Below the pieces are notes generated by a model. That model did no database searches and was not told the DNA's origin. It was given only the letters and a program-made list of their open reading frames with translations. Below are positions 3,301 through 63,235 of a stretch of DNA of 64,000 nucleotides, in pieces. The position numbers and the translations under genes were made by a program. Within the stretch, counting starts at the first letter, position 1, and each line of letters starts with the position of its first letter. Origin of the DNA: a virus; the IMG/VR virus record IMGVR_UViG_3300029319_000005, positions 83,377 to 147,376 of that record; one strand, 5' to 3'.

Positions 3301-6300
3301 CTCGGCTATTTGGCTAATTCCTTTTGACTCTCCAAAAGGTAGTTCAATCGTAGGATAGATAGTATCAAAAATTTTATCCCACTCTTCTCTTTCTGGCGTT
3401 CCCTCCTCCGCTTTTGGTATAGCATATTGTAAATTTAAGAAATTTAAAAGAGATTCTGATGCGTCTTGCACATTTGAAAAATCTGCGTTTCTAATAAATT
3501 CTTTTAAATCTTTTTCAATAGGAAATAATGCTAGATCTTCACTATGTTTATTTTCCATATATAAAATCAATCTAGGAAACAAAGATGACTTTAGTGACAA
3601 GCGCCACTTTCCTTGTTCCGAATCGTAAATCAATTGTCTTATATGAAATCTTTTATCCCAATCAGACCACCCAGGAGACGACATACCTTCGTAAATCTTA
3701 GCAAAAACAGCATAGCAATCTTCCGACGTTATTGGGTTATCGATATCACCTTTACCTAAAACAATTTTGTCTTGATTTTCATAAGCAGTATTATCCCAGA
3801 CATTCCAAGTAAATTTTGATTCATATTCAACGTAGTATTTCATTGAATTTAAATATTTTTGTATATACAGAACGTTAAGCCATGATTTTTGTAAATAAGT
3901 GTCAACCACTGAAAAAGACGCCGGGGCGTGGATTAAATTGGTTCCTTGATTAGGAGAGTAGGGAGCAGCGCCATCAGTCCAATCTAATGATTCTCCAGTA
4001 TAAGGAACAAAATTTGTAAGCAATAAATCTGTTTTAAACTGCTCAAAATCAGTTCCTTGTTTTTTAAGCATTACTTGATATATCGAGATGATAGAATCGA
4101 ATAAGGCACTTTCTTTATCTTTTAAAGAAACAATATCAAGCGCACTCCATTTGCTCCAATCGGTAGCACTCAAATCCGCTTCAAATTTAACAAAGCTGTT
4201 AGGAGTGTACCTTACGACAGATCTTTTTGAATTATTGATACTATCTCCTCCAATATAAAAAGAGAAATTAGCACCTTTCTTTGCCTTAGATGTGTTTGGA
4301 TCAACAAGCCTATGAGCACCAAGGGGAACGTGTGGAAGTCCATCAGTCTTCGCTAGATCCCCTATTGTGGCAATTGATTTAAACACTCGAACATTCCCAT
4401 CCGAATCTATATTATTTATATTTTTAAAGTTAGAGTCTTGGCCTGTAAGATTCAACAATTTTTTGGGAATCGCTGTTGGCCTATATCTAAACTGTTTCCA
4501 GTCTTCAAAAATTTCAAACAATTCTTTATCAATTGCAGACAATTCAGAAAAACCTTCATTAAGATTATTGGTTACTGTAGCCAGTGAATAAAAATCATCT
4601 AGCCCTACATAGCCATTAAATAAAGGTGCTGCTCCATCAATCTCTAAAAAGTCTTTCACATAGTCAAAAGATTGATCGCTTATTTGTCCATATATTCCTT
4701 GGGAAACTGCCTCTTCCGCCGATAGGTTTGAAAACATAGGATTTGAATTAAAATTAACCTTTTTAGCACTTGTTTTAATGGGAGGTATATTTTTCAACTT
4801 CGGCTGATTATTGCCGATATTAAGCTTGGCCTTAACCTCTATGAACTGTTCTAAAACAAATCCTCCATCTTTAAAATATCTTTGATCAATATTATTTTTT
4901 AATATTTGCTTTTCTATAGAAACAATCCTTCCAAGCTCATTGTTATAAAAATTTGGTGGTACATCAAACTTTTCAAAATCAACTTCAAGAGTAGCGAGCA
5001 TATCATTTAAATCAATAGTCCCCTTTTGCGAAGCCTGCGACAGCACTTCTAATAATTCATCATTTTTTGGACCATTATAGGCATAGCTTAGATATCTTGC
5101 GATATCCAAAGCTTGATTAGCAGGGTCCTCAAACATACTAACAAACGTAGGAACGTTTAAGACCTCTGGATAAACCGTTCTTCCCGCAATCTTAAGGTTA
5201 TCATCAGTCAAAGCCTTGTTTTTTAAATCCGGCTGTACAACTCCGTATGTTTGTACGACTGGCGTGTCTAATATTCTACGGAAAAGGCTGTCAGATACTT
5301 CTCCAAACTTTTCAACATCAATATCTAACTCAGAGACTGTCTGGATGTTCTCTTTAACCTTATCTGAGACTTCGTACAGTGTCTTTTCTAAAAGCAATTT
5401 TAAAGCATCAGTGTTTGTCATTTCAATGGCTTCTTCTTGAGTTAAAATGTCATATGAAGCTTGTGCCATTAGACTTAAAATATCGTCCGCGCCGTCTTCG
5501 ACTTCTGCACAAAATAAACTAAATATAAAGCCCATATAGATTTCTTTGTTCACACTGTTTAGGCCAATCTCAGAAAAATAAAATATAGACGGAAGAAATT
5601 TTTCATATATTAGGACTCTCATAAAAGTTTTAGTCAGTCCTGCCATGATCGCTCTTTGCAATGCTGCTTGCTCATCAAGTCCTTGACAAATAAAGTTCTT
5701 TCTGATCGTTTCCATAGATGCCGTTAAAGAGGCCAGGTCCATAAGATCAACTTGCTTTGTAGGACAAAGCGGATCATCAAACAGAGTCATAGTTAAAATT
5801 CTGTTCGAGTCTAAGAATGGTGAATATAAAGATTTTTTAGAAAACCTTCCAGCGAGTGTGTCTAAAGCAGTCGAATAGTGGGCTCGCATGGACGCTCTGA
5901 ACTGTGCCTCAAATTGCTCATTAATTTGACCTAAAATAGGTTTCCAACTGTCTGTCATGACCTGAGAAAACCTTTCTGCTTGGGACGACGGCTGAAACTG
6001 TCCCTCTATCCCCACCGCATAGGGGTCCGGATAAGCGTGAGTTTTTGAAAGAGCCTTCATGGCTTGTTCAAGTTGTGCGCTTGGATTAGGGCTTTTTATT
6101 CTCAAAGACAAGGTTTCATTTTGATTATCTATTTCTATAGAATGCAAGCCTGTAATGTCTATTAGATACTGCGAGGCTCCGTCAGGCGACAATCCAGAAT
6201 AAATTTTATTTTTAAGAATTATTTCTTTATCATATTCCAGATTATTAACAAAATCATTATTTTTTATGTTTTGAGCATTCGTCTTCTTTGTTAAAGATAA

Positions 6301-9270
6301 AGCAGCTACTGCTCTGTTTTCTTTTAATTCACTAAAACGATCAATGCCGTCCAATGATTCTATAAATTCTAATCCCGCAGCAAATCCAGAGGTGTTAAAT
6401 AATCTTCTTAATTTTGCCATGGGATCGATAGTATTAAATCTAACTTCTTGTTTAAAATCGTTAGAAATGACCTCTACTAAGGTGTTATCTTCATCTTTTA
6501 AAAGATTTCTAAAATCTACTAAAAGCTCAACATTTTTCTGTGAAGCTCCTCCTTTGTTTGCGCTCATAGAAGGCACTAGCACTTTGTCATCAAGCTCTAT
6601 AAAGTTGGTAGTAATGTTTAATTTAGAAATTGCATCGCTATCAAACAAAAATACAGGAAAAGCATTCAATTCAACCGTAAACTTTGTCTTAATTGAATCA
6701 AAGGCACTCTGATAGGCGCTTTTATTCATAAAATCGCCAGCCGGATCAGGAATTTTTAACAACTCACACGGCTGTAAAACAAACTCTGGGTCGAATGCCA
6801 GAGCGCTTTCAGGATTTTTATCTGGCAGTCCGCCAATAATTTCATCTAAAAGACCGTCATCATAATTTGAATATTTGTCTTTCATTTGCTGTTTAAAGTC
6901 AGCACAAATTTCGGCGCTTGACATCCTAGCCATTTCATCTATTTTTTCATCTAATAGTGATAAGTTACAATCTTCTCGACCCATAGACGCTAATCCAGAT
7001 TCGACAGCAGCCTTTTCGGACCTGATCCCTAGTTGTTGGTTAAGTCCTCTTGCTATCGCTTCAATTACAGAGTTATTAGCGTTCCCTTGCAAGCAATCTC
7101 TCATTTCCAAAGGAGTAGTAGTGTTGGTAACAATTTTCGCTAATTTTTCGATTTCTTTTTTAGTGCGTAGTAAGTTTGCAGACTTCGGAGATCTTTCCAT
7201 TGATTTTGTAATAACATGGTCTGCAAACTTTAGAAGCGCATCATCTTTATTTGTTAAAAAGTCTCCAAGGTCTGCGGCCCCCTTCTTAAACTGATCGCCT
7301 ACACCTTCAACATTACAAGAAGCGATCATTATCAGCATTTGTTTAAAAAAATCAACAATTGCTCGTTCTACGGTCTCTTTTATAACTCCTTCAATATTGT
7401 TAGTAAAATCACCCCAAAAATCACCAATTGGAGTGGTTTTTTTGAAAGCAGGCATTATCCTAGTATTTCCTAGAGTTACCAAAAATTTGTCAATCCTGTC
7501 AAGAACATCAACATTTGGAGTGCCATATCTATCAGCACAAGTTAATCCTAGTATTAAAAGGTCTCTAACTGTCAACCTTTTCACAATCAAGTTTTCTATA
7601 TCTTTAATTGTTTTAATTCTAGAAAGAAGCCTGCCGGAACTGATCTGCGCTACGGTTGAATCTCTAATAACGTGGCTGGGCCTTATTTTAGCATTGCCAG
7701 GATAACTTAACCAGGGCGCATCATATTGTTCATTTAAAGATGAAAAGTTAAAGCCATCCGATAAAAGAGACCCATATGCCTCATGTAGGCCAGAGGCAGC
7801 GATAGACGCAACCACTCCTCCGGCAACATCGCCAGTCACAAACAAGCCTTTTATATTGGCATCTGCTCCCGCCTCGGCAATACCAGCTAATGAGTTTATT
7901 GCGTCCTCTCTGTCAAAAGGAGCATTTGTCACTTGATCATAAAGTTTTGAAATATCGTGTTTTACTTGTGATAAAATAGCCTTTTCTTTTTCAACATCCT
8001 CAGAACCTTTGTATAGCGCATCTGCTTCATCAAATACTTTCTCTATTTTTTGTAGATTTTCTATACTAATGTCTTTTGGATAGTGATAGGCCTCCAAAAA
8101 TGGCATTAAATCAGTATAATCAGCACCCCCTCCATCTAGAAAACCAGAAGTAACGTCGCTAATAGGATTAGAAGAATCAATTATTTCATTAATATTTCTA
8201 ATGTAGTTAACGAAAGTTGGGTAATATTCTGCTTCAATTGTGCTTTTAGTTCTACCTATGGATGTATCTAAAAACTGGTTGTTACCTAGTGACTCCTCGC
8301 TGCCCTCTAAATTTAGCTCTGCTGTTATTTGTGCTTCAAACTCTGACTCGCCAACCCTAATAGCAGCCGCTGGTAAATTTTTGATAAAACTAAATCCAAA
8401 GTACTGTTTTTCAAACCCTAATCTAGAAAGTGCTTCGTCGCTGTTTAAAGAAGACTCTCTAGGATTTTGCTCTACTAGTCCATAAACCTCTTCCATTAAG
8501 TTAACAGCCTGCTTTTCGCTAGAGTCTGGAATTTCCACTAAGTTTCTAGCTTCAGCCCTAAAAGATTCAAGCCCTCTAGAATCCGGAAAAGTTATACATA
8601 GAATAGGAACCAACCCTTCCAGCCACGACACCGGCCCTTTAGTACTTCCGGCTATTTCATATAAACCCTGTTGGTTCACTTCGCTCGCTTGTTTTTGGGA
8701 AGATTTTTTCTCTTCATAAAATTCTTTCATGTCTGCTACTAACGCATCTTTCCATGCGTCAATATTTTCTATGATATATTTTTCTTTATAAAGATCGACT
8801 TTAATTTTATCTGCCGCTTCAACTATTGCTGTTAAAACAGCCTTTAACTTTCTTAGCTTAGCCACGAAAATAGAATTGTCGCTATAAGTTTCGTCAAATT
8901 CTAGTATCACAAAATCAGTAGCCCCATTAAGAAGGGCGCTGCTAGGAGCATCTCTTCTAACTGCCCCTAAAGAACTTAATACAACATCAGATATCAAAAC
9001 ACTAACAGAAATCGTTGCTGCTGCCGGATCATACTTAAAGTAATCTCCCTTAATAGCTCTAGGTAACGAAATTAAATTAGCATCATTTGTGAGTTCCGAA
9101 TATGCAGAGGGCGATAGCAGATACTCAGTGTCTAGCAATTCAACCGCTCTAGTACGAATTAATTTTTGTACTTCGTTTGTAAACAGTTTTTCATTTTTAT
9201 CAGCAACAAAGTCCTTGCCGCTAGACCAGTCTATTACTATTGGAATTTGTAAATATTTTTTTGTAGCCAC
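400..9270 (-). CDS. very large (2956 aa) protein of unknown function, probably a virion/baseplate component
   Basis: Uninterrupted ORF (GTG start) between gp5-like and gp25-like genes; no recognisable catalytic motif. Confidence 0.6.
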   Translation of the reverse strand: MATKKYLQIPIVIDWSSGKDFVADKNEKLFTNEVQKLIRTRAVELLDTEYLLSPSAYSELTNDANLISLPRAIKGDYFKYDPAAATISVSVLISDVVLSSLGAVRRDAPSSALLNGATDFVILEFDETYSDNSIFVAKLRKLKAVLTAIVEAADKIKVDLYKEKYIIENIDAWKDALVADMKEFYEEKKSSQKQASEVNQQGLYEIAGSTKGPVSWLEGLVPILCITFPDSRGLESFRAEARNLVEIPDSSEKQAVNLMEEVYGLVEQNPRESSLNSDEALSRLGFEKQYFGFSFIKNLPAAAIRVGESEFEAQITAELNLEGSEESLGNNQFLDTSIGRTKSTIEAEYYPTFVNYIRNINEIIDSSNPISDVTSGFLDGGGADYTDLMPFLEAYHYPKDISIENLQKIEKVFDEADALYKGSEDVEKEKAILSQVKHDISKLYDQVTNAPFDREDAINSLAGIAEAGADANIKGLFVTGDVAGGVVASIAASGLHEAYGSLLSDGFNFSSLNEQYDAPWLSYPGNAKIRPSHVIRDSTVAQISSGRLLSRIKTIKDIENLIVKRLTVRDLLILGLTCADRYGTPNVDVLDRIDKFLVTLGNTRIMPAFKKTTPIGDFWGDFTNNIEGVIKETVERAIVDFFKQMLIMIASCNVEGVGDQFKKGAADLGDFLTNKDDALLKFADHVITKSMERSPKSANLLRTKKEIEKLAKIVTNTTTPLEMRDCLQGNANNSVIEAIARGLNQQLGIRSEKAAVESGLASMGREDCNLSLLDEKIDEMARMSSAEICADFKQQMKDKYSNYDDGLLDEIIGGLPDKNPESALAFDPEFVLQPCELLKIPDPAGDFMNKSAYQSAFDSIKTKFTVELNAFPVFLFDSDAISKLNITTNFIELDDKVLVPSMSANKGGASQKNVELLVDFRNLLKDEDNTLVEVISNDFKQEVRFNTIDPMAKLRRLFNTSGFAAGLEFIESLDGIDRFSELKENRAVAALSLTKKTNAQNIKNNDFVNNLEYDKEIILKNKIYSGLSPDGASQYLIDITGLHSIEIDNQNETLSLRIKSPNPSAQLEQAMKALSKTHAYPDPYAVGIEGQFQPSSQAERFSQVMTDSWKPILGQINEQFEAQFRASMRAHYSTALDTLAGRFSKKSLYSPFLDSNRILTMTLFDDPLCPTKQVDLMDLASLTASMETIRKNFICQGLDEQAALQRAIMAGLTKTFMRVLIYEKFLPSIFYFSEIGLNSVNKEIYMGFIFSLFCAEVEDGADDILSLMAQASYDILTQEEAIEMTNTDALKLLLEKTLYEVSDKVKENIQTVSELDIDVEKFGEVSDSLFRRILDTPVVQTYGVVQPDLKNKALTDDNLKIAGRTVYPEVLNVPTFVSMFEDPANQALDIARYLSYAYNGPKNDELLEVLSQASQKGTIDLNDMLATLEVDFEKFDVPPNFYNNELGRIVSIEKQILKNNIDQRYFKDGGFVLEQFIEVKAKLNIGNNQPKLKNIPPIKTSAKKVNFNSNPMFSNLSAEEAVSQGIYGQISDQSFDYVKDFLEIDGAAPLFNGYVGLDDFYSLATVTNNLNEGFSELSAIDKELFEIFEDWKQFRYRPTAIPKKLLNLTGQDSNFKNINNIDSDGNVRVFKSIATIGDLAKTDGLPHVPLGAHRLVDPNTSKAKKGANFSFYIGGDSINNSKRSVVRYTPNSFVKFEADLSATDWSKWSALDIVSLKDKESALFDSIISIYQVMLKKQGTDFEQFKTDLLLTNFVPYTGESLDWTDGAAPYSPNQGTNLIHAPASFSVVDTYLQKSWLNVLYIQKYLNSMKYYVEYESKFTWNVWDNTAYENQDKIVLGKGDIDNPITSEDCYAVFAKIYEGMSSPGWSDWDKRFHIRQLIYDSEQGKWRLSLKSSLFPRLILYMENKHSEDLALFPIEKDLKEFIRNADFSNVQDASESLLNFLNLQYAIPKAEEGTPEREEWDKIFDTIYPTIELPFGESKGISQIAELKGIADGTAVYDLNILTATNGEQLQISSNLATSYVDVNEIVFNLNAEELYWHFDHVLKGLTFYGLFADKSIGANLVKWSSCIQGFNYYPYELVEREIDATLKKGNSAVSRLTWRQFSNPDVEIIFPKQITTKNLKKNIKDLTSLPLLDYEDVNYEFSSQIAVFSGLFGTDINEAPLFVKPSLLFGKTTIHQPNSSVTNFKSLDWMGENVNMDPDDIIQDSVSEHMSKRYHPDYLHEETSRVGFKVLTDDVTQNALPERNILAASYKPQQYSRIWGIKSKNYAPLLNESLGSHKDWDPDWDSGFWVGAKDAGLAIMEGVHNLFGFSGLSDENNPGPKSVLYFLNQFKEIWTEDHGRRRATLDTLLLNMKFYLNQIQNYDTLPKSHMNDWSILYISDAVDNFMNSDESLQLKSIRIGRPTPSGKFYEINSMTNNIDIGSRGLDYDQEIGATLNKFMSIINYDTLYGQDFEAGEEAVYTPVVDIPLVRAGAPGVEGEYLNMPMSIDKFAVHMNDAALFATGMSKTNHNNMYNSRTLYYLNPETNEYERISGEETIAYKLLKNWYDKIEELRDKRAKIINNLRDKVIKFMPAVKGSEFFADEPHTTYYEPLKAGVRLSYVLPVSKESEESIPSDGVFLKNSLSDMIQARRAFAGSPGRNYPPLYKKSYEIIERETKQVTVDDEQEVQTINKEIYKIPIAESKIKISDIYGVEDKDIPLSFALQLGPDGNILYDYNKVYEEVFKLKEELLKKQKFQVLFGYSLPVEDLATLSALGTYNTIVDTAKPGLSQMFSQTKSDLLNTMTAFSLPLSYDSAAEFRSYEEQYAFSTADPVDATGIDQQVILQASLMILKGLAEISDPTIATAKAIKDTVYQGVKTTIKAGEAAFGGDASSLYDNKTMRYWRSSQAMFPIVLSLLPYPLIPQEVLFAAGITNPFHITPLGMTYWGLSVTGKLDPLDGTLTAGYHSNEPC

Positions 9271-38499: not shown

Positions 38500-39390
38500 T
38501 TATCTAAAGTTGGCATAACCTATGTCAATAATAGCTATCTGTCCATTTTTTTCCATAATGTTTGAAGTTTTCAAATCATTAAAGATAATGCCATTGTCGT
38601 ATAAAAAAGTTAGTCCGGATGCAAGTTGGTTAAGATATAAACTTCTCGGGTCACTTAAAACTTTATTTGCGTGTTCTGTTGCCGACAGAGAGTCAGATAA
38701 AGTAGAATTATACATACCGACACTTAAGGTCCAAAATTCAGTAAAAAGTCTTTTTTGTAGTTCATCCCATCCTAAAGTATTAGAAATAGAATCAATTTTT
38801 GGTTCTATCGAGTCCCACTTATTGGAAGAAGGAGTTAAAACGATGGAATCCTTAGACAGGGCATTCAAAAATTGTTTTATAAGATTCTCTGCTTCAGATA
38901 AGTAAGATTCTTTCCACTGGTAGTAAAACTTATCTTTTTTTATTTTATGGAACATAAGCTCTGCTACATCAACCATTAATCTATTTGGATATTCTAAGTA
39001 AGAATATACAATGGCGTATCTCTGATTTTCCAAAGGTCTAAATTCTACGGGCAACTCTTGTGCTTTATAAATTGTGTAAACATTCGGGTGTTCTTTACCA
39101 GCTATCATTTTAGCGGCGCGATACTCTGTGTCATCCGACGTTATCTTCAACACTTTTTTATCAAACAAATAGGCAGAACCTTTTGATCCAGAACCAAGAA
39201 AATCAGGGTCTCCCTTTAGATCTCCCCATTTTTTAAATGATTCTATAGCCCTAGAAGTAAGAGGTATTCTTTTTTGTTCATCAGTTACTTTAGCTAAAGA
39301 ATCATTAATAAATCTTCTTCCGCTGTCTAATGTATTGATACGCTCGTCTAGACTTTTATATGCTCTCCATCCTGCAAAAATATCTCGCAT
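38500..39390 (-). CDS. protein-kinase-like protein with leader motif
   Basis: LGSGSKGSAY, VLKIT, DLKTSNIM, IIDIG; N-terminus WRAYKSLDE. Confidence 0.75.
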   Translation of the reverse strand: MRDIFAGWRAYKSLDERINTLDSGRRFINDSLAKVTDEQKRIPLTSRAIESFKKWGDLKGDPDFLGSGSKGSAYLFDKKVLKITSDDTEYRAAKMIAGKEHPNVYTIYKAQELPVEFRPLENQRYAIVYSYLEYPNRLMVDVAELMFHKIKKDKFYYQWKESYLSEAENLIKQFLNALSKDSIVLTPSSNKWDSIEPKIDSISNTLGWDELQKRLFTEFWTLSVGMYNSTLSDSLSATEHANKVLSDPRSLYLNQLASGLTFLYDNGIIFNDLKTSNIMEKNGQIAIIDIGYANFR

Positions 39391-39391
39391 G

Positions 39392-39976
39392 TTATTTCTC
39401 TATGTCTTCTAATAGACGAGATATCGCCCAGCGTTTATTACGAGAAAAATTCTCGTAATACTCTATTTCGGCAGCTTCTTTGAAATGAAATGGACGCCCC
39501 TTAACCCGCGACATAAATTCTGATTCTTCGCCCATCTTAATCCCACCAACATCCATTGTCTCACCAAAAGGGGGGTATTCATTGTCAGGCCTAGTTCCTA
39601 CAAGAAAAGCGTCGCTCGCGCCGCGAGGTATTAGAAGAACAGAGTCTTGCTCGTACTCAATGCCAAAATTTTCTATCGATTTAAAGAAATTAGGCTTATT
39701 ATGTTTGTTTACAACAAGCAGGCTCTCTTCTGTAACTTCTACTGCCTCTGGAGTTTCAAAGTTTTCAATAAATGAGCCCACAAGTTTAGCGACACCATAG
39801 CCTCTTTTGAGTAGACGAGCTTTTAATATTTGTCCTTTTTCTTTGTTCTCTTTTGCGGTATTTTCTGCACGATAAGCAGAAATGATAGCAGTGTCGTATT
39901 CTTTCATATGAGAGTAAAATCTAGATAAAGATGATTCTGCTAAAAATATTCTCCATTCATGTAGTATATCTTGCAT
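39392..39976 (-). CDS. SAM lyase (T3 SAMase-like) with leader motif
   Basis: ISAYR..EN..GSFIE..TEES..EYEQDSVL parallels T3 SAMase VSAFR..GCYRE..TEEK..EWEQDCVL (T3 sequence recalled from memory). Confidence 0.7.
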   Translation of the reverse strand: MQDILHEWRIFLAESSLSRFYSHMKEYDTAIISAYRAENTAKENKEKGQILKARLLKRGYGVAKLVGSFIENFETPEAVEVTEESLLVVNKHNKPNFFKSIENFGIEYEQDSVLLIPRGASDAFLVGTRPDNEYPPFGETMDVGGIKMGEESEFMSRVKGRPFHFKEAAEIEYYENFSRNKRWAISRLLEDIEK

Positions 39977-44339: not shown

Positions 44340-45368
44340 TTATCCTTTTTTTCCTGCTTTAGATTTTTTGCCAGATTTTTTTGAGGTCCCACAATCAGAT
44401 GGTGTTGGGCGACAATGTGGATACTTTGCTCTTTTTTCGCCCTCTTTTCTTCCGCACGATTTGCAAGTTTTCCTACCAGTCTTCTCGTCTTTTCTACAGG
44501 TATTGCAGTCCACCCAGCCTTTTGATTTGCCTTTACCACCTTGTCGGGAAAACCAACCGTGTAGACCGGATTCTTTTTCTTTAGAGTAGTCAGTTTTCTT
44601 TTTCTTTTCTTCTAGCTCGTTCTCTTGAACGGGCACACAATTGGGAACCATACGATCGCCCTTTTTCTTCATCCCAACTTGCTCATATCCCTGCCAGCAC
44701 GCTTCACCTAATACGTTTTGTATTTCTTCTTCTACTATCTTTCTAATATCTTCTTTTACACCTTTCCAAATCTTTCCTTGTCGGCATTTGACCACTGCTC
44801 CGGATGCATATGCAGATGGCCAAACATCATACTTACGCTTTGCTATTCTAGTGCAGCGGTCCCCCTTCTTCTTTTTCTTCTTTTTCTTCTTCTTGCGTTT
44901 TTTTTCTTCTAGCGAATCTTGATTTTTTTCTTGCCATTCCGCAGACTTATCATCTTCTGTAATTGGGCCGCCTTTCGCCCATGTCCGGCAAGACCTGGCG
45001 GAGTGGCATTTAAAGTGGTGCATCCAACAGTACCCAAGCTCACCATCATCATCGGATGTTTCTCCAGGCATGCAGTCTTTCATTCTTGGTGAGATATCAA
45101 ATGCTACACAATTGCCACATAATGATGCCTTAGCGGCCTTTTCATCGGTATTCCAATACTCAGCTATGTCTTTCCAGTAATCCCCCGGTTCATCGACGTT
45201 TAAAGGGCCATATTGAATATGATCTTCGTGGATAGCTGCATCGCGGTTCTTTGTGTTTAATTTTAGATCTTGAGTTGCCGGTGGGCAAACAAGCTCCGTT
45301 GCTGCTTTAACAACAACATCAACACTTTCTTTTAGATATCTTTGCCACTCTGTTAACAATTTTTTCAT
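44340..45368 (-). CDS. leader-tagged multi-module basic/Cys-rich protein
   Basis: MKKLLTEWQRYLKES; modules separated by LEE/LGE; internal IRKIVEEE. Confidence 0.7.
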   Translation of the reverse strand: MKKLLTEWQRYLKESVDVVVKAATELVCPPATQDLKLNTKNRDAAIHEDHIQYGPLNVDEPGDYWKDIAEYWNTDEKAAKASLCGNCVAFDISPRMKDCMPGETSDDDGELGYCWMHHFKCHSARSCRTWAKGGPITEDDKSAEWQEKNQDSLEEKKRKKKKKKKKKKGDRCTRIAKRKYDVWPSAYASGAVVKCRQGKIWKGVKEDIRKIVEEEIQNVLGEACWQGYEQVGMKKKGDRMVPNCVPVQENELEEKKKKTDYSKEKESGLHGWFSRQGGKGKSKGWVDCNTCRKDEKTGRKTCKSCGRKEGEKRAKYPHCRPTPSDCGTSKKSGKKSKAGKKG

Positions 45369-46993
45369 TATTCATTTACTCCCTTTGGTAATCCTAAAAG
45401 TATCTTCGTTTCTTTAGAACCGCCAATATCCCTTATATACCAACCATTATAATTAGGATATTTACCTTCAGGATGACCACCTAGCCATGTTATTTCTTTA
45501 CCTAACACTCTTTCGACATCTTCTTGACTATCCACAAACGGGACACCGTACTTGGTTATCATAATGTGAGCAATTGCTTTTGACATCTCAGAAAAATATC
45601 CAGGAGTATTCAATAATTGCGCTGACTTATCTATATAAGCAGTTATAGCTTCTTTGCTTCCATCGTGGCCCGCAACAGTCATCTTTTTGCCTGCTGGCTT
45701 GTTAGAAGACACGCGCAAAGCGTCTGGCTCCGGATCAGAGTCTATATCAGTTGCAATGTATTCATCGTATTTGCCCGGTAAATCCGATGCAGATCTTATA
45801 TTCGAATGTCCACCAATTTTCTTATAGGCATTATTTATAAGATTATATAACTCATCGGCTAGGTTTATTTCGCCGCCACGATCTCTAGCAGCAGAAGCAA
45901 TATCTTCGATAGGTATATCAAGCCACTGGCCTTTGGGGGCGTCGTAGTCTGCCCATTTATTTTCATTCAAATTAACTTCTCTTTGAAATAGAAAGTATAC
46001 AGGCACCTGTTCAAGACCAAGTTCCTGTGCAATTTGATGTCTATGGTTCCCCTCGCCAATTTTGGCTACACCATTCGATCCAAATTGAATAAGCAAGGGC
46101 TCACGTATACCGTTTTCTTTTATGTCCGCCCTTAACTCTTCGTATTTGCCAGTTTTTATTCTACGTAGCCGGTCCTTAACGTACTCTCTGTAAGGGGCGA
46201 GTTCTTCAGTTGGGTAATAAACGGGATCACTGGAATCGACGTTACTTTCCATGATAGTACCTCGATTTTCAACCCAACATTTTAAAAGCTGTTCAATGGA
46301 AGGAGGATTATTTTTATTAATTGTATAATACGCTTTGCCATAAGGGTCTATTTCGGGACAAACAAAGTTATCTCTTCCGACATCATCGTATGTAAACGAT
46401 TCATTCAAAAACTTCCGCCAATCTACTCTCCCTACTAGTTGTAAGATCTTGGCAACGTTTTTGTGACTGTTTGGCTGAGCAATAATTTTATAAGCCTTTA
46501 AGTCAGCATTTGCCTTTTGGGCCAAAAATGCCCTGTGGTTCCCATCAGTAACTTCACCATTTTCATCAATAGTAATGGGAGGAAATTTGGAAAAATCAAC
46601 TTCGCGTGGGTCGGCTGGATTATTTCTAAAATAGAGCGCATCTTTCCCGGCGGCTTTATCTTTGATGTATTGTTGATATTTTCTCTCTCGTTCTTTTACC
46701 GCCTCATCTGATATTTTATAATCACTTGGACTTACTAAAAACGGGCCTTCTAAAATATATTTGTCTATGCCATGTATAAATCGTTTCAATTCTGGGTATG
46801 AGTCACGACCTTCGTTGTAATGATAATCTAATAATCGCTTTTGCTTTGGGAACATGCCTATTAATAGTTGGTGGATTTCGTTAGCTTTTTTGGGATCTCG
46901 CAAAGCATTACCTACATTTTCCCAATCACTAGTTTTCATCGAATGGATCTCTTCATTCAAAAACTTCCGCCACTCTGTTAGTAGTTTTTTCAT
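45368..46993 (-). CDS. leader-tagged protein with two ParB/Srx-like domains and a third unknown domain
   Basis: PPITI..DGNHR and EPLLI..EGNHR, separated by WRKFLNES. Confidence 0.7.
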   Translation of the reverse strand: MKKLLTEWRKFLNEEIHSMKTSDWENVGNALRDPKKANEIHQLLIGMFPKQKRLLDYHYNEGRDSYPELKRFIHGIDKYILEGPFLVSPSDYKISDEAVKERERKYQQYIKDKAAGKDALYFRNNPADPREVDFSKFPPITIDENGEVTDGNHRAFLAQKANADLKAYKIIAQPNSHKNVAKILQLVGRVDWRKFLNESFTYDDVGRDNFVCPEIDPYGKAYYTINKNNPPSIEQLLKCWVENRGTIMESNVDSSDPVYYPTEELAPYREYVKDRLRRIKTGKYEELRADIKENGIREPLLIQFGSNGVAKIGEGNHRHQIAQELGLEQVPVYFLFQREVNLNENKWADYDAPKGQWLDIPIEDIASAARDRGGEINLADELYNLINNAYKKIGGHSNIRSASDLPGKYDEYIATDIDSDPEPDALRVSSNKPAGKKMTVAGHDGSKEAITAYIDKSAQLLNTPGYFSEMSKAIAHIMITKYGVPFVDSQEDVERVLGKEITWLGGHPEGKYPNYNGWYIRDIGGSKETKILLGLPKGVNE

Positions 46994-53538: not shown

Positions 53539-55437
53539 TTACTTACAGGCGTTTTCGTCAATAATTTCCATTAGGTTATTATACATAGTCACCATATCGT
53601 CAGTTAACTGATACCATTTGCCGCCAGACGCGACACAAAGGGGATCCCACCCCTCAAGTGCAATCCAGTTGTCCTTATGGTTTGTTTGAGAAAATATATA
53701 TATCTTAGTATTTGTAACTTTACCTATCAATTCAAGCAAGATATCTTGTGTGATATCTGGAATAGTGTAACTTTGGGAACCCTCGTCGGTAAACAGTACG
53801 ATAACTCTTTTAACCTCTGGATCGGTTCGCCAGTTAATGATAAAATCTTTCATTGGAGGTTGAGATTCAGTAACCCCAGTGCCTGTGGCCCATTTCAGCG
53901 GGGGAATGGTAATTGGCAAAGACCCAGCCCCAACGAGATTATGCAATGAGAGATATATTGCGTCCATCATCATCTCTCTAGCGCCCGACATTGCCCAAGA
54001 ACTTATATTTAATTGTGACATTGAAGATAGAAAGTCACTGAATCCACTAAGATTGTGGTAAAGATTTAAATATTCTGAATTGTTCCAAGCGTTATCGAGA
54101 GGTCCTAGAATAGTACCCCATTGTAAAACCTCTTCGTCACTGTAGCTAGCGGCAAACTTATTAAGAGCAGACATAACAGCATATATCTCTGTATCCATCG
54201 AACCTGACCAATCAACGATAAAGAGAACATCAACAGGCCCCAACTCTTCCCCTGAGTCTGTTTCGCCGTCACAATCGTTATCTACACCATCACAAATTTC
54301 TTCTTGAGGTGTTACTTCATCTTTGCAAAGGCCCGGTACGAAATAATCAGGTATGCCTTCAAAGTAGTTACCCCAAGTTCCTTTATAGCACGTCAAAATC
54401 CCAGGCTCACAAATACCTACAAACAGCGTATCTGGATCAGCAGTATAACACATTTCAAATAAGTCTTCATCAATTAATTGATTACAATTGTCGTCGTAAT
54501 TATTGCACTCTTCGGCAGCAACAGCGCCTTTTGTGGGATCGCATTCTTCGCCCGGTACTGGAAAATATACACAAGGAGATACACAATCCGTTGTCAAAAT
54601 CTCTGAACAGTCCGGCGTTGTACATTCGCAAGTTTTATATCCTTCCCCGCATATTAAAGGCTCTTCTTTACAAGGGAAAAGAACTCCAACGTCTGCGATT
54701 GTACACTCACAATTTATACCTTCATCAATTTGTCCATCGCAATCGTTGTCGAATCCGTCACATATCTCTGTCTGGACCGGGGGCGCTGTGCAAGAAACCC
54801 AGATGCCACCAACGCAGTACTCAATGCCATTCCCACAAGCAGAATAACAGTCTTGAATCAAGTCCTCATCAGTACCGCCATCACAATCGTTGTCCACATT
54901 ATCACAAGTTTCTTCCGGCAGGAAACCACATTCATCACAAGCGTTCCTCTGTCCCTCATCGATATGACCATCACAATCATTATCCTCGTAGTCGCAGATT
55001 TCTTCAGAACACAAAGAGGTACAATCAGTATATTTTATTTTACCTTTATCACAAATTTTCTTTTGAGTACCGGGATACCCATCATCAGTTGTACAATCAA
55101 CATCTCCCAAGTCCGGCGTGCTTGGGTCACATTCAAAGATTTCAAAGCACTCACTAATAGAAATGATTTCAGGAGGATCTTTGCAGATATCTGTTGTAAC
55201 CTGCATTTGCCAAACTTCGTCTAGTGGGGGACAAAAGTAAAATTCAAATTTATAACATCTTTTTTCATAATTGTTTTTTGCAAAATAGCGAATCATTTCC
55301 GCAGAGAGAGATTTATTAAAGATATGCGACTTTGTATCAAACGTAAGCTCTGGCCTCTCGTTTTGATTCTCAGAACAAGTCATCAATGCTACTGTTAATA
55401 ATAATAGCGTAAGAACTCTAATAAATTGTTTCGTCAT
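53539..55437 (-). CDS. lipoprotein with Cys/Asp-rich ExCDxxDNDCDG repeats and a C-terminal vWA domain
   Basis: LMTC lipobox; ~5 EICDGFDNDCDGQIDE-type repeats; MIDAS DWSGSM; FTDE. Confidence 0.8.
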   Translation of the reverse strand: MTKQFIRVLTLLLLTVALMTCSENQNERPELTFDTKSHIFNKSLSAEMIRYFAKNNYEKRCYKFEFYFCPPLDEVWQMQVTTDICKDPPEIISISECFEIFECDPSTPDLGDVDCTTDDGYPGTQKKICDKGKIKYTDCTSLCSEEICDYEDNDCDGHIDEGQRNACDECGFLPEETCDNVDNDCDGGTDEDLIQDCYSACGNGIEYCVGGIWVSCTAPPVQTEICDGFDNDCDGQIDEGINCECTIADVGVLFPCKEEPLICGEGYKTCECTTPDCSEILTTDCVSPCVYFPVPGEECDPTKGAVAAEECNNYDDNCNQLIDEDLFEMCYTADPDTLFVGICEPGILTCYKGTWGNYFEGIPDYFVPGLCKDEVTPQEEICDGVDNDCDGETDSGEELGPVDVLFIVDWSGSMDTEIYAVMSALNKFAASYSDEEVLQWGTILGPLDNAWNNSEYLNLYHNLSGFSDFLSSMSQLNISSWAMSGAREMMMDAIYLSLHNLVGAGSLPITIPPLKWATGTGVTESQPPMKDFIINWRTDPEVKRVIVLFTDEGSQSYTIPDITQDILLELIGKVTNTKIYIFSQTNHKDNWIALEGWDPLCVASGGKWYQLTDDMVTMYNNLMEIIDENACK

Positions 55438-57846: not shown

Positions 57847-58125
57847 TTAACAGTCCGCCTTTTTCTTCGTGACCATCATCGCCTTTACAGCGGTATCAGT
57901 ATCTAAATCATCTAGAACTCCCAGCCACGCCTCTTTCTCAGCGTTAGTCATTGCGTCCATCATGGCCCACAGGCTATCAATCTCATCTTGCATTTGTAGG
58001 TTTCTATCTAAGAGTCTTGTATTCTCTTCAATTAAAAGCTCTAACTCTTTTTGGAGCGTATCAATTAATTCTTCCAATGTTAAGCCTTCTAATGTTCTTT
58101 TTTCTTCAGTCATATCATCTATCAA
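57847..58125 (-). CDS. coiled-coil protein
   Basis: Heptad pattern. Confidence 0.5.
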   Translation of the reverse strand: MIDDMTEEKRTLEGLTLEELIDTLQKELELLIEENTRLLDRNLQMQDEIDSLWAMMDAMTNAEKEAWLGVLDDLDTDTAVKAMMVTKKKADC

Positions 58126-61100
58126 ATACTACTGGCTGATCATCTGCTAAATGGAATCCTATATTTCCGGCGTGGACATCTGCCGTTTCTTCGTCGAATA
58201 CCAAATGGTCTCCTTTTTTAAGAGCAATTTCTAATACCTCTTTGAGCATCTTAGCTAAAGTAGCCGTGCCATAACCGTGCTCTGACTCTTTAGGAAGTCC
58301 AACGTTGCTTTTATGTATAATTTCTAAAAGATATTTTACGTATTGAATTTTATCTTTACTATTTGGATTTTCCTTAATAGGTTCTATATCTCTATCATCA
58401 GGATGCACGTTGGGATTATATTGAAAAGCTAAATTCTGAAGGAGCGTGTGTACGTCATCAAAATGCGCCGCAGCAATTAGGGGGCTTGCGCCCTTTTGCC
58501 TAGCCCACATTTTTAGAGGAACTACTTGTCCGATCTCTGCCCAAGCAACATCAAAATTACTAGTCTCTAAATTGCCTGAGCCGAAGACAGCAAGTTCTCC
58601 TCTTCGTGATGCCCCTGTAAATTGGTCGCTTTTCATTTCTTCGTACCATTCTAGCTCTTCTTCCGCTCCTCGGATCCCACCAGAAAAAAGCTTAAGAGCA
58701 TGGCCGTTATCTAACTCAAAAACGACACCATAGGCCCCAGCGCCCAGAAGATCAACAATCTTGTTTGATTTCAACGGGTTATCATTTGGAATTTCGTTAA
58801 CAACATCTGTAAAAACAGAAAGATTTTTCTTGCGAAACTCATCCGGATATTTTGCTACTTTTAATTTTCCTATGTCTATATCAAAATAGTCCGGGATACG
58901 AGCCATCATGACATTGTCGAAAATCTCATGAATATTGTGAATATAGGTTTCATTACCTTTCTCCAGTGCTCGCTGGGCATATGCCTTTTCTTTTTCTGTA
59001 CTAAATCTTTCTTGCTCTTTGGCTTTAGCCAATTTTTTTAATGCGCTATAAACTTGTAAATCTTTTTCTTTTCTTGAACGCTGTTCCTTTACAAATTTTT
59101 TCCATTTTTTAAATTGCTTTACAACTTTTTGCTCGTAAATAGCTAATTTTAAACGACTATTTTTCGTCTCTTGTAAAGAGGCACCAAACTGTGCTGTCGC
59201 ATCTTGAGAAGCTATGTGATCATCATTAGGATCGTATTGTGGTCGAGGAGTGTCAAAAGTATTATCTGTCATTCTAAGTCTGGCAATTCGATCTACACGA
59301 AACATTCTCCACCCAGGAAGATTGTCTGGCGTGTCTGATGCGCCTTGAACTTGCCATGCACGGACTACTGGATTCCCCGACTGGTAGTGCGTACCAAGAA
59401 CGACAGGTTCAATAGCTCTAGCTCCTCTGCTAACTGTATTGTCTCCCTCATAAAATATAATAACAACTCTTTTGTCGTTTATTGCTTGCCCTAAGTTATT
59501 GTATTTATTAGATAATCCTAAGAGAGTTGTTTGTTCTTTAAGTTTCTTCTTCCACTTCTTATGGAAGTTTTCTTTTTTTGGAAAGTTTGGACTGCTTTCA
59601 ATTTTCTTTAAAAGTTTTTCTCTCTTGTTTGTCTCCCAGTTCCCATCAGTCATACCCGCCCTCTCCCAAGCGGCGTCTAATAGTTCTTTTTGTATTTTGT
59701 AAACTTTCATTAAAGTTTTCGGGCTAGTCTTGGGGTTTTCTATAACCGCTAATGCTACATCTTCTCCTTCTGCCGGTGCGGGTGATAGCTTTGCACGACG
59801 TCCTGAAGGAAGAGGTTTTTCCGAGAATCTAGCTGGCATTGATACAATTTTATCAATTATTTGTGGGCTGCTATTAGGATGGGCCATTATTTGTTTCAAA
59901 TCAGCTATCTCGTCATGCCCGAGGGCGCTCATTCGTTCCACAATGTCGTTGAGGAACGCCTCATCCAAGTTTGGATGTTTAAGTATTTCTTCTCGCGCTT
60001 TCCAAGAAAAATCTATATTGTAATCACTTTTACCGAAAAAGATTTTTTTAACAATATCAAGCGGCATGTTTGGATGTTTTAAAAGCGAAATGTACATTAG
60101 ATTGCTAGTGAGCTTTCTAACGTTTGGATTCTTTTTAAGATTAAATTTATCCAGTATCCTTACGACAGTTTCGGTAGGCGTAGAAGGATTTTTTATGAGT
60201 GCCCCCGTGACGACAAATTGAGCCATCCCGCCATCACCACGAACTCGACGCTTTTTGTCACCAGAGGTTACCCCCATTGTCTCCTCGGCCTTTGTCAGCA
60301 GACTAGGAGGGGTTCCTGGGTTAGCAAACAAATCTCTCAGACGTTCAGGATTACCATCTTTGTATATCCTAGTTGCTTCCTCTTCTGATATATTTGGATC
60401 CCTAGCAAGCAAGACTTCATCATACGTTGAGATAATTTTATATTTTTGTCTAGCTTTCGTCTTACTCAACAATTGATGAAGTTGGACGATCTTTTCGTCC
60501 GGAATCTCGTAATCTCTTCGGTCCATAAATTGTTCTGTACCGTAATGAAACTGAAACTTGTTCTCAGGATCATCTTTCGGAACGAAAACGAATAAGGGAT
60601 CGCCAGGCTTGTAGTATTGAGCAAAATAATCCAACCCAGGTGCCGCAGTACACCACTCGGTACCTTTTCCAAGCTCACAGGCTGCTCCTTTGTTGTGTAT
60701 AGCGGCAATGTACCACTCATCATCATCCCTGAATACTTCTGTGCCTTCCGCAGCATCTAAAAATTTCTGCTTTTCTTGATACGCTTTAATGTCCGGCCAA
60801 GCCTTGTCAGTAATATCAAGTAACTGGTCTGGACTTTGGATTCTATTTAAGTCCTTGGTTCCCATAAAATCTGAATACTGGAAGAACATTTCAAGACTCC
60901 GATTTACAGAGAAAAGGTAATTGGTCATATCAGAAGCATCAATGTCGAGTAGTGCTGTATCAAGTACATGGCTAGCCTCTGTGGACACGATATGGTCTCG
61001 AAGTGATGAAACGGCTTGCGCCATGGTTGTTTTTACCTTTACATTTTTTCGAAGCAAACGAACAATCCAAAGTATTGCTGCGCCCTTTTGATTATCCGTT

Positions 61101-61423
61101 ATGTCTTGCGGTATCACCGTTTCTTCAATAGTGTCTGCTATCATACCCTTAAGTTCAGGACCGTACCTATTTCGGAATTTTTTTCCTGGCATCATCAGTG
61201 CATATGTAGCCACGATTTCCTCTAATTCTTCAAGCTCTTCCGAGGCACCTGTCCAACCGTCACGCGCATTCTTCGCATTGTCGTAGTTTTCCTTAGCTAT
61301 TTGAAGCATGTCGTAGGCCCAGGCGTTAAGAATCTTATCCCCAGCCGAGCCCCTTAGATTTTGCATTGCATCTGCCGAGGAAACCTCGACTAAAAAATTT
61401 TTCCACTTTTCTTGAAAGTTCAC
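58115..61423 (-). CDS. leader-tagged multi-domain protein: GTxWC domain, NP/HPN helical repeats, WYL domain, kinase-like domain
   Basis: GKGTEWCTA; NPxTP repeats; RAIEP..WRMFRVDRI; LGAGAYGVV..ALK..DVHAGN..VFD. Confidence 0.75.
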   Translation of the reverse strand: MNFQEKWKNFLVEVSSADAMQNLRGSAGDKILNAWAYDMLQIAKENYDNAKNARDGWTGASEELEELEEIVATYALMMPGKKFRNRYGPELKGMIADTIEETVIPQDITDNQKGAAILWIVRLLRKNVKVKTTMAQAVSSLRDHIVSTEASHVLDTALLDIDASDMTNYLFSVNRSLEMFFQYSDFMGTKDLNRIQSPDQLLDITDKAWPDIKAYQEKQKFLDAAEGTEVFRDDDEWYIAAIHNKGAACELGKGTEWCTAAPGLDYFAQYYKPGDPLFVFVPKDDPENKFQFHYGTEQFMDRRDYEIPDEKIVQLHQLLSKTKARQKYKIISTYDEVLLARDPNISEEEATRIYKDGNPERLRDLFANPGTPPSLLTKAEETMGVTSGDKKRRVRGDGGMAQFVVTGALIKNPSTPTETVVRILDKFNLKKNPNVRKLTSNLMYISLLKHPNMPLDIVKKIFFGKSDYNIDFSWKAREEILKHPNLDEAFLNDIVERMSALGHDEIADLKQIMAHPNSSPQIIDKIVSMPARFSEKPLPSGRRAKLSPAPAEGEDVALAVIENPKTSPKTLMKVYKIQKELLDAAWERAGMTDGNWETNKREKLLKKIESSPNFPKKENFHKKWKKKLKEQTTLLGLSNKYNNLGQAINDKRVVIIFYEGDNTVSRGARAIEPVVLGTHYQSGNPVVRAWQVQGASDTPDNLPGWRMFRVDRIARLRMTDNTFDTPRPQYDPNDDHIASQDATAQFGASLQETKNSRLKLAIYEQKVVKQFKKWKKFVKEQRSRKEKDLQVYSALKKLAKAKEQERFSTEKEKAYAQRALEKGNETYIHNIHEIFDNVMMARIPDYFDIDIGKLKVAKYPDEFRKKNLSVFTDVVNEIPNDNPLKSNKIVDLLGAGAYGVVFELDNGHALKLFSGGIRGAEEELEWYEEMKSDQFTGASRRGELAVFGSGNLETSNFDVAWAEIGQVVPLKMWARQKGASPLIAAAHFDDVHTLLQNLAFQYNPNVHPDDRDIEPIKENPNSKDKIQYVKYLLEIIHKSNVGLPKESEHGYGTATLAKMLKEVLEIALKKGDHLVFDEETADVHAGNIGFHLADDQPVVFDR

Positions 61424-61438
61424 GTTTTATCTCCGGTG

Positions 61439-61747
61439 TTACTCAGACTTAGGCCAAGGTGTACCAGGCCCTTTCCAACCTTTCGCGTACATCGAACGAA
61501 AAAAGTTATCAGCTTGCTCCTGTCCAGACAAACGGTCTTTAACAAGAGGATTTGGCTTAGGCTCGCCATGCTCATCCTCGTAAGCGTCCTTCATTTTTTC
61601 CATCTCGTGGTCGCCATGTTCGTCTTCATCAAGCTCGATGCCCTCTTTATAGCTAGGATTTACGTCGGCTCCCATATTTGCAACCTCTTCGAACTTAGCT
61701 AGCTCTTCTTTGATTATCTCTACCAATCTATTTTTCTTGATTATCAT
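61439..61747 (-). CDS. leader-tagged acidic protein
   Basis: MIIKKNRLVEIIKEEL. Confidence 0.6.
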   Translation of the reverse strand: MIIKKNRLVEIIKEELAKFEEVANMGADVNPSYKEGIELDEDEHGDHEMEKMKDAYEDEHGEPKPNPLVKDRLSGQEQADNFFRSMYAKGWKGPGTPWPKSE

Positions 61748-62576: not shown

Positions 62577-62882
62577 TTATAAACCCATCTTATGGGCTGG
62601 ATGATTCCGCATGGAAGGCAACTTCAGGATATCCACCAGTATAGACTGTGCCCCTTGACTTAAAGACCACCAATCAGATCGCTTGCTAGCTAAAATGTCT
62701 CTTGCCACCTGCTGTTCTTTGGGGAGCATCTTGTTAAGCAGGTAATCGACATCTTGTTGTGCTGCTTCTTCATCGCTTAATTCGGGCGTCCCGTCTGTTC
62801 CTATATCGATGTCGAAGGTTTCGCTAAGCTTGCTTATCTCTTCTTTGATTATCTTTTTTAGTTTTGATTTGGTGAGTTTCAT
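62577..62882 (-). CDS. leader-tagged hypothetical protein
   Basis: MKLTKSKLKKIIKEEI. Confidence 0.65.
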   Translation of the reverse strand: MKLTKSKLKKIIKEEISKLSETFDIDIGTDGTPELSDEEAAQQDVDYLLNKMLPKEQQVARDILASKRSDWWSLSQGAQSILVDILKLPSMRNHPAHKMGL

Positions 62883-63235
62883 AATGATTTCTTCTGCTCA
62901 AAATAGCCCTGTTTGATACTAATTCCTAGCTCGTCGGCTAAAGCTTCTAGAGCCTGAGCCCTAACATCATACTCGGCATCTTCTAGGTCTTCTACAGCCG
63001 CCCGGACCCAAGGTAGCTCCCCATACGACACCGCACCAGTATTATAGTAGCCCCAATCACCTTTGTAAGGGTCCCCTCTCTTTGTGCGCATGTCTATGTC
63101 TTGCTTAGCCCCTGCTAAGCTAGCGTATTGAGGGTCGTCACGGGTCATATCTCGGCCACGAACGTCTGTTATCTCTTCAACCTTAGCTAGCTCTTCTTTG
63201 ATAATTTGTCTTAGTTTTGATTTAGTTAATTTCAC
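62879..63235 (-). CDS. leader-tagged hypothetical protein
   Basis: MKLTKSKLRQIIKEEL. Confidence 0.65.
   Translation of the reverse strand: MKLTKSKLRQIIKEELAKVEEITDVRGRDMTRDDPQYASLAGAKQDIDMRTKRGDPYKGDWGYYNTGAVSYGELPWVRAAVEDLEDAEYDVRAQALEALADELGISIKQGYFEQKKSL

Follow-up and report, generated by a model that had tools for sequence, protein, structure and literature searches.

The window analysed here is the last 64 kb of the 147,376-bp viral record IMGVR_UViG_3300029319_000005 (IMG/VR; CheckV completeness estimate 81%). The virus is an uncultured, marine, T4-like phage. On the minus strand of the window lies a gene for a 1102-residue protein in which an uncharacterised N-terminal domain (N-domain), an alpha-solenoid, a WYL-like module and a protein kinase-like module follow one another, and in which a short amphipathic peptide, referred to below as the tag or leader, occurs three times (Table 1). 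A sequence-only reading of this stretch had noticed the motif at the N-terminus together with two internal echoes and had proposed that three tagged cassettes were fused into one gene. The exact positions of the internal copies fall within a few bases of those given there (~59532-59572 and ~59081-59119), and the residues following them are QTTLLG and QRSRKE, as read before; the first copy is followed by VSSADA. Copies 2 and 3 lie past the end of the solenoid (~612-620), flank the Pfam WYL match (residues 642-718) and precede the kinase core (~880-1102). They are thus inter-domain, at the domain borders where they had been placed, and not inside folded domains. The reading frame is unbroken across the full-length orthologues.

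Table 1 Features of the gene for the 1102-residue protein (window positions; a downward arrow marks a predicted cut or the end of a leader, here and in the text)
Feature	Residues	Window positions	Strand	Remarks
Whole open reading frame, putative precursor of ~125 kDa	1-1102	58115..61423	-	GTG start; stop codon 58115-58117
GGAG, ribosome-binding-like site		61431..61434	-	8 nt before GTG; upstream sequence read directly
Leader 1, (M)NFQEKWKNFLVE	1-13	61385..61423 (motif residues 2-13, 61385-61420)	-	L-x-E type end; predicted cut E13↓V14
N-domain (VSSADAM... GKGTEWCTAAPG ... FQFHYGTEQFMD)	14-~340	60404..61384	-	Large, uncharacterised phage family
Alpha-solenoid repeats	~341-612	59588..60403	-	NPxTP/HPNxx repeats, LRV/HEAT-like
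Leader copy 2, NFHKKWKKKLKE	619-630	59534..59569	-	Predicted cut E630↓Q631
WYL-like module	631-~745	59189..59533	-	Pfam WYL match, residues 642-718 (59270-59500)
Linker	746-768	59120..59188	-	Two more conserved hydrophobic-x-Glu sites, LQE752 and IYE764
Leader copy 3, KQFKKWKKFVKE	769-780	59084..59119	-	Predicted cut E780↓Q781; 11.5 bits against the leader matrix
Charged helical spacer	781-870	58814..59083	-	K/E-rich
Truncated protein kinase-like module	871-1102	58118..58813	-	Gly loop GAGAYG, Lys (ALK), DVHAGN, final FD(R)

The three copies were scored with a 12-column matrix; it had been derived from 23 distinct leaders at the N-termini of non-orthologous proteins encoded on other contigs. 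The best three windows of the whole protein were the three motifs, with 12.7, 11.5 and 2.1 bits, and the fourth best reached -6.7 bits. In 5000 composition-preserving shuffles, a pair of windows, one scoring 11.5 bits or more and the other 2.1 bits or more, arose with P = 0.0002. Eight further full-length orthologues, 55-82% identical to the window protein, were found in marine metagenomes, and in all of them the three motifs are present, down to the [LV]-x-E at the end. At the level of sequence, LVE13, LKE630 and VKE780 are conserved in 9 of 9 full-length orthologues, and within motif 2 both F620-W624 and L628-E630 are invariant. The coding stretches of the three copies have only 20-21 of 36 bases in common, which rules out a repeat at the DNA level; the likeness is therefore held at the level of the peptide and does not stem from a recent DNA repeat. 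Identity to the window protein across the orthologues is 87-91% in the WYL part, and goes down to 57% in the kinase and to 29% in the solenoid. Judged by these values, the modules diverge independently, as units.

The tag is not confined to this gene. When the whole genome was translated in six frames, the pattern W[KR]xx[LVIFM]xE was found 10 times, five times at the N-termini of minus-strand genes of the window and three times internally in two of those genes. The looser pattern ..W[KRQN]x[FY]LxE heads eight minus-strand genes of the genome, that of the 1102-residue protein included; the tagged genes comprise a SAM lyase, a protein with a weak ParB-like match and further unnamed proteins. 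The tag itself is amphipathic, with a hydrophobic-x-Glu sequence at its end. In related contigs, runs of genes start with MKLLLENW[RK]xYLNE.

A protease that could act at such ends is encoded in the same genome. A T4 gp21-type prohead protease (Peptidase_S77, PF03420, 111 bits) is matched at G000:C1:45339-45767, within a minus-strand gene at 45222-45863; among isolates, it is most closely related to proteins annotated as prohead proteases in Flavobacterium phage immuto and in cyanophages. The genome further codes for a Gp23-type capsid protein, and small prohead core-like proteins beside the protease start with peptides related to the tag, for example MKLTEENLKKFILE. The protease and capsid genes are ~95 kb away from the tagged genes on the contig. 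Among the contigs with relatives of the modules, four of five carry an S77 protease, and the fifth is 71% complete.

The proposal of fused cassettes was supported by the homologues, as each of the three modules is found elsewhere alone, in a gene with its own leader, and in all three cases these leaders end in hydrophobic-x-Glu. The stand-alone relatives were drawn from an exhaustive search and from contig scans; a word index, queried for shorter relatives, yielded no more than fragments and a single WYL protein. Dozens of proteins consist of a stand-alone N-domain behind a leader of the MKLLFENWRxYLNE type. Stand-alone WYL-like modules (133-294 residues) follow peptides ending in ISE, LNE or LKE, as in L036/L037/L040 (133 residues; MKLLNNLKNIISE↓AAA) and in L035, L038, L039, L041 and P0161 (..LRSLNE↓, ..QLLKE↓, ..RILNE↓). 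Kinase modules stand alone in P0102 (FLGRWREFLIE↓GW), P0128/L018 (MEAWRGFLNE↓GW), L008 (LLLKEWKTFTE↓N) and L025 (MNLLLNEWKTFLED), and in these relatives, too, leader and kinase are separated by a stretch, which varies in length and sequence. One related phage, L003, possesses both arrangements, a 1085-residue fusion and, 1.4 kb upstream, a separate leader-plus-kinase paralogue. The 635-residue P0010 resembled a natural split orthologue and was rejected as an artefact, a run of N breaking the frame in a TARA scaffold (L042:~370-420). The pairing of WYL domain and kinase, which the sequence-only reading had called unusual, does exist in that the two share one precursor gene, and is weaker than it sounds, the modules being separate in other phages and having no further functional link.

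In most members of the N-domain family the same tag comes first and is directly followed by (V/I)(S/T)xx(D/E)A, as in the 1102-residue protein. Where a protein has two or three N-domains (P0015-P0018, P0021, P0130), every copy, the internal ones included, starts with LLxE↓(V/I)(S/T)xx(D/E), which points to the existence of whole families of putative tandem precursors. Relatives from other metagenomes have two to five N-domain copies per chain, for example P0015 (1420 residues), P0016-P0018, P0021 and P0093 (1844 residues, five copies). No match to isolate phages was obtained with blastn, nor with tblastn of P0044, a central member of the N-domain family, and no cultured model phage was found by these searches.

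The exhaustive search gave 3302 matches at E <= 1e-3, nearly all over residues ~100-335, within the N-domain. The domain and nine relatives had no Pfam match at E <= 1. A PcfJ-like assignment (PF14284) was considered and not confirmed; it came from an Atlas feature lead only (0.88), with PF14284 on 32-33% of cluster members. Phage PA5oct has a distant relative of the N-domain (E 2e-6), for which the annotation is that of a structural protein identified by electrospray ionization tandem mass spectrometry. Within the N-domain, residues 177-195 (window ~60850-60900) form a conserved and leader-like motif, E.FFQ(W/Y)..FM.E+DLN+I, which scores with the leader matrix in the relatives P0099 and P0043; it is either the source of the tag or a look-alike within the fold.

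Structure prediction, which had been put forward as the means of defining the domain borders, served this end in part: the border of the solenoid could be read from the model, and the folds of the WYL-like module and the N-domain were not confirmed by it. The full-length AlphaFold model has a predicted local distance difference test (pLDDT) score of 48, and the solenoid is its sole confident part. Against HEAT, ARM, PUF and LRV solenoids, VIA Z scores of 8-9.6 were obtained, and the aligned ranges of the model end at residues 609-637, most of them at 610-621. In the solenoid region the relative P0011 carries PF01816.

The label WYL, given to the second module from its sequence, was upheld by the hidden Markov model (HMM) of the family. 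Excised as residues 631-768, the module scores 24.0 bits with WYL (PF13280), above the gathering cut-off of 21.8, whereas the whole protein reaches just 19.9 bits; the match is borderline and spans the whole 70-position model. Six of nine relatives match WYL at E <= 0.01. The WYL profile had no match among PDB sequences, and the full-length model has a pLDDT of 25-30 over the region, too low to show an Sm/SH3-like beta-barrel. The module shares this HMM match with the WYL-domain proteins, ligand- or nucleic-acid-binding domains of defence regulators. Bacterial WYL regulators differ from the phage module in having an attached helix-turn-helix or effector domain.

The C-terminal module was modelled from a 16-sequence alignment, and its core reached a pLDDT of 88.9 and a predicted template modelling score of 0.85. 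The Foldseek matches listed for this model were protein kinases with E down to 7e-7, and the best 500 all had E <= 0.001. In a VIA all-against-all structural search the model matched ULK4 with Z 10.2 (root-mean-square deviation 3.3 Å over 135 residues) and PknB with Z 8.8, and shape searches of BFVD and the Atlas agree with a protein kinase fold. The residues G28, G30, G33, K45, D216, N221 and D235 are invariant in the 16 sequences, down to 25% identity. The phage chain stops one residue past the DFG-type Asp, the aligned kinase chains stopping at their own DFG, and everything after the DFG is therefore missing from the module. No Pfam kinase model matches the whole protein or the excised module at E <= 1, and a search of PDB sequences with the module gave nothing useful. 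Membership of Pkinase (PF00069) was rejected, because there is no HMM match and the activation segment and αF-αI are missing. The earlier label of a kinase consequently stands for the fold and the catalytic residues and does not extend to a Pfam kinase family. On the basis of the model, we confidently assign the module as a truncated protein kinase-like fold that comprises the N-lobe, the hinge and the catalytic loop. The clusters nearest by language-model features in the Atlas have PF27024 (Phage_T7_kinase) in 10-17% of their members; the T7 gp0.7-type kinases are likewise small phage protein kinases acting on host proteins, a likeness that is a lead only and comes without an HMM match in the Pfam copy used. 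T7 gp0.7 itself is not packaged but synthesised early, from the DNA after its injection.

Taken together, a fusion of three tagged cassettes, whose tags were retained and selected, is a well-supported origin of the gene, because the motifs are conserved and not due to chance, the same tag stands on other genes, the modules occur as stand-alone tagged proteins, the copies have inter-domain positions, the last module has a kinase fold and an S77 protease is encoded. The cassettes are (A) the N-domain with the alpha-solenoid, (B) the WYL-like domain and (C) the charged spacer with the kinase devoid of everything after the DFG Asp, and each is still preceded by the amphipathic tag ..F..KWK..[LV]xE.

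We favour, with about even confidence, the view that the protein is a capsid-cargo precursor of a T4-like phage, loaded into the head and cut into three by the prohead protease. By analogy with T4, the N-terminal tag would carry the whole precursor into the prohead core, where the S77 protease would cut after Glu13, Glu630 and Glu780; further cuts, after Glu752 and Glu764, may trim the second product. The products, of ~70 kDa, 15-17 kDa and 36 kDa, would be present in equal numbers within the head and would enter the host along with the DNA. As a speculation, right at the onset of infection the kinase may phosphorylate host proteins and the WYL-like protein may bind nucleic acid or a nucleotide ligand.

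Several observations weigh against this processing scheme. The 1102-residue protein has 19 hydrophobic-x-Glu sites, of which nine are conserved, four of these nine within folded parts; such sites are common, so that a site by itself predicts little. Motif 2, in which K replaces the F/Y of the leaders, is a weak match to the leader matrix (2.1 bits). Confidence in the full-length model is low overall (pLDDT 48) and around motifs 2 and 3, and motif 3 is modelled as the start of one long helix spanning residues 759-846. The relatives P0127 and P0058 have internal or C-terminal leader-like copies that lack the terminal Glu or a following module; the helix may therefore bind something instead of marking a cut, and these copies fit binding as well as cleavage. 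To our knowledge, the capsid-targeting sequence (CTS) of T4 cargo is known only at N-termini. Our confidence is divided between the favoured scheme and its rivals because of the common Glu sites, the leader copies devoid of Glu and the low-confidence model around motifs 2 and 3.

Among the rivals, the one that survives best, and that we regard as rather unlikely, is that the protein is packaged and remains uncut internally, acting as one multi-domain polyvalent effector of 124 kDa. The internal tags would then be relics of fusion or extra helices that attach to the scaffold core, and removal would be limited to the N-terminal tag, if it occurs at all. Chains with numerous effector domains are well documented among the polyvalent proteins of phages (PMC5512222), and both the long helix modelled at motif 3 and the relatives whose leader-like copies lack the terminal Glu or stand at the extreme C-terminus suit such an effector. 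However, relics would not be expected to remain 89-100% identical beside a solenoid at 29%, and the [LV]-K-E end of both internal copies is kept in all orthologues while the flanks vary. Moreover, the internal junctions of the multi-copy relatives retain LLxE↓ only and not the Trp part of the tag, which is what a cut site would require.

Improbable, in our estimate, is a tag that has nothing to do with the capsid and is instead a shared N-terminal amphipathic helix for binding a membrane or a partner, or for control of translation or stability, on a protein that acts in the infected cell and is not packaged. The distance of the tagged genes from the head block, with the protease and capsid genes ~95 kb away, agrees with this, as does the fact that the likeness to the T4 CTS (MKTYQEFIAE) is one of pattern only. 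Yet at the end of the tag there is invariably the kind of Glu site that the encoded S77 protease would be expected to cut, the tag is common to unrelated enzymes, as in T4, the prohead core-like proteins beside the protease start with related peptides, and the distant N-domain relative is annotated as a virion protein detected by mass spectrometry. Finally, despite the shortness and Lys-rich composition of the motifs and the weak match of motif 2, a chance product of Lys-rich helical linkers with no common function is very hard to reconcile with the shuffle P of 0.0002, the invariance of the motifs across orthologues and the leaders at the same positions in stand-alone relatives.

The scheme of a cargo precursor that is loaded and cut draws on known systems. 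In T4, unrelated internal proteins join the prohead core via a CTS, which gp21 removes by cutting after Glu in I/L-x-E, and Alt is cut at both ends, at ITE-6 and LTE-619 (PMC3012670, PMC5694885). The features in common with IPI, IPII, IPIII and Alt are a short N-terminal amphipathic tag on unrelated proteins, its hydrophobic-x-Glu end and a homologous S77 protease; T4 cargo also includes host-directed enzymes, to which the putative cargo of the window phage may be likened. In contrast to the T4 CTS, the window tag is longer, differs in sequence and has an invariant Trp. T4 cargo genes encode one protein each, whereas here the tag recurs at module borders and one precursor would yield three proteins, a difference read from the gene alone.

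In the giant phages phiKZ, 201phi2-1 and SPN3US, ejection or inner-body proteins are cut by gp175/gp245 after Glu in (S/A/G)-x-E, with several cuts per substrate (PMC5694885, PMC10052503). These proteases are homologous to the S77 protease of the window phage, and a three-residue motif ending in Glu is found in both. The multiple cuts in giant phages mostly discard long propeptides and do not separate modules, and no repeated targeting tag is described there.

Polyvalent proteins of phages and conjugative elements, described by Iyer, Burroughs, Anand, de Souza and Aravind in 2017, hold several unrelated conflict-type domains per chain, and an analogy with viral polyproteins has been drawn; one clade of their kinases has lost the whole C-terminal subdomain, keeps the active-site residues and also occurs as stand-alone genes (PMC5512222). 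With its N-domain, solenoid, WYL-like domain and kinase, the 1102-residue protein likewise joins at least two unrelated domains of effector type in a single phage chain. In polyvalent proteins the release of the domains is attributed to peptidase domains within the chain (PMC5512222), whereas here the cut would come in trans, from the prohead protease at the tag copies. No peptidase family was detected in Pfam or PHROG scans of the 1102-residue protein, the N-domain of which could not be folded.

The T4 CTS system, the cleavage of head proteins of giant phages at multiple sites (PMC5694885, PMC10052503) and polyvalent proteins with truncated kinases (PMC5512222) are already published. No example of a tag-delimited precursor that the prohead protease cuts in trans was found in the searchable literature, and searches of the literature with leader strings gave only spurious matches. 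If the cuts occur, the idea of T4 internal proteins, with a single tag on each protein, would widen to polyproteins delimited by tags, and abundant uncultured marine phages would pre-load several host-directed activities, a kinase included, for delivery at time zero. The tag with its Glu site would also provide a simple sequence rule by which packaged effectors could be sought in metagenomes, and a portable means of loading capsids with foreign proteins. Going further, we tentatively raise the possibility that in marine T4-like phages the tag is the universal joint of a plug-and-play cargo system, combining the functions of head address, cut site and recombination seam, along which tagged effector cassettes are strung into precursors. 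Were this the case, pre-made enzymes, here the truncated kinase and a WYL-type binder of a ligand or of nucleic acid, would reach the host in fixed ratios before phage gene expression.

Other tagged genes lie around that of the 1102-residue protein. The SAM lyase (PF23780, E 4.7e-14; window 39392-39976, minus strand) bears the tag MQDILHEWRIFLAE and, if packaged, would be a pre-made anti-restriction enzyme. A 541-residue protein (45368-46993, minus strand) starts with MKKLLTEWRKFLNE and matches ParB_N weakly (E 4e-4), short of the gathering score. A second exact WRKFLNE occurs ~190 residues into its chain (46400-46420; VGRVDWRKFLNE↓SF), which makes it a second candidate tag-delimited precursor of the same genome.

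Three small open reading frames just upstream of the 1102-residue protein gene (61439-61747, 62577-62882 and 62879-63235, all on the minus strand) have a second class of leader (MKLTKSKLKKIIKE↓E.. and MIIKKNRLVEIIKE↓E..). The nearest tagged small gene is separated from the GTG start by a gap of 15 nt, so the two genes are probably co-transcribed. The second leader class also heads some stand-alone kinase relatives on other contigs (L020-L024: QLKQLINE↓ELNKLLLE↓). In the marine phage contigs L008 (5794-10770) and L025 (601-3587), five or six consecutive genes start with MKLLLENW[RK]xYLNE, one of them being a stand-alone kinase; judging by this gene order, an island of putative tagged cargo is kept there as a genomic unit.

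Elsewhere in the window, a giant open reading frame of 2956 residues (400-9270, minus strand) had no Pfam match at E <= 0.01, and one of 296 residues (38500-39390) showed no similarity to the kinase module of the 1102-residue protein. A 632-residue Cys-rich protein (53539-55437, minus strand) combines a hydrophobic N-terminus with metal-binding repeats of the MopE type (PF11617); in the related contigs L003 and L005 its position relative to the putative precursor, downstream by a few small genes, is the same.

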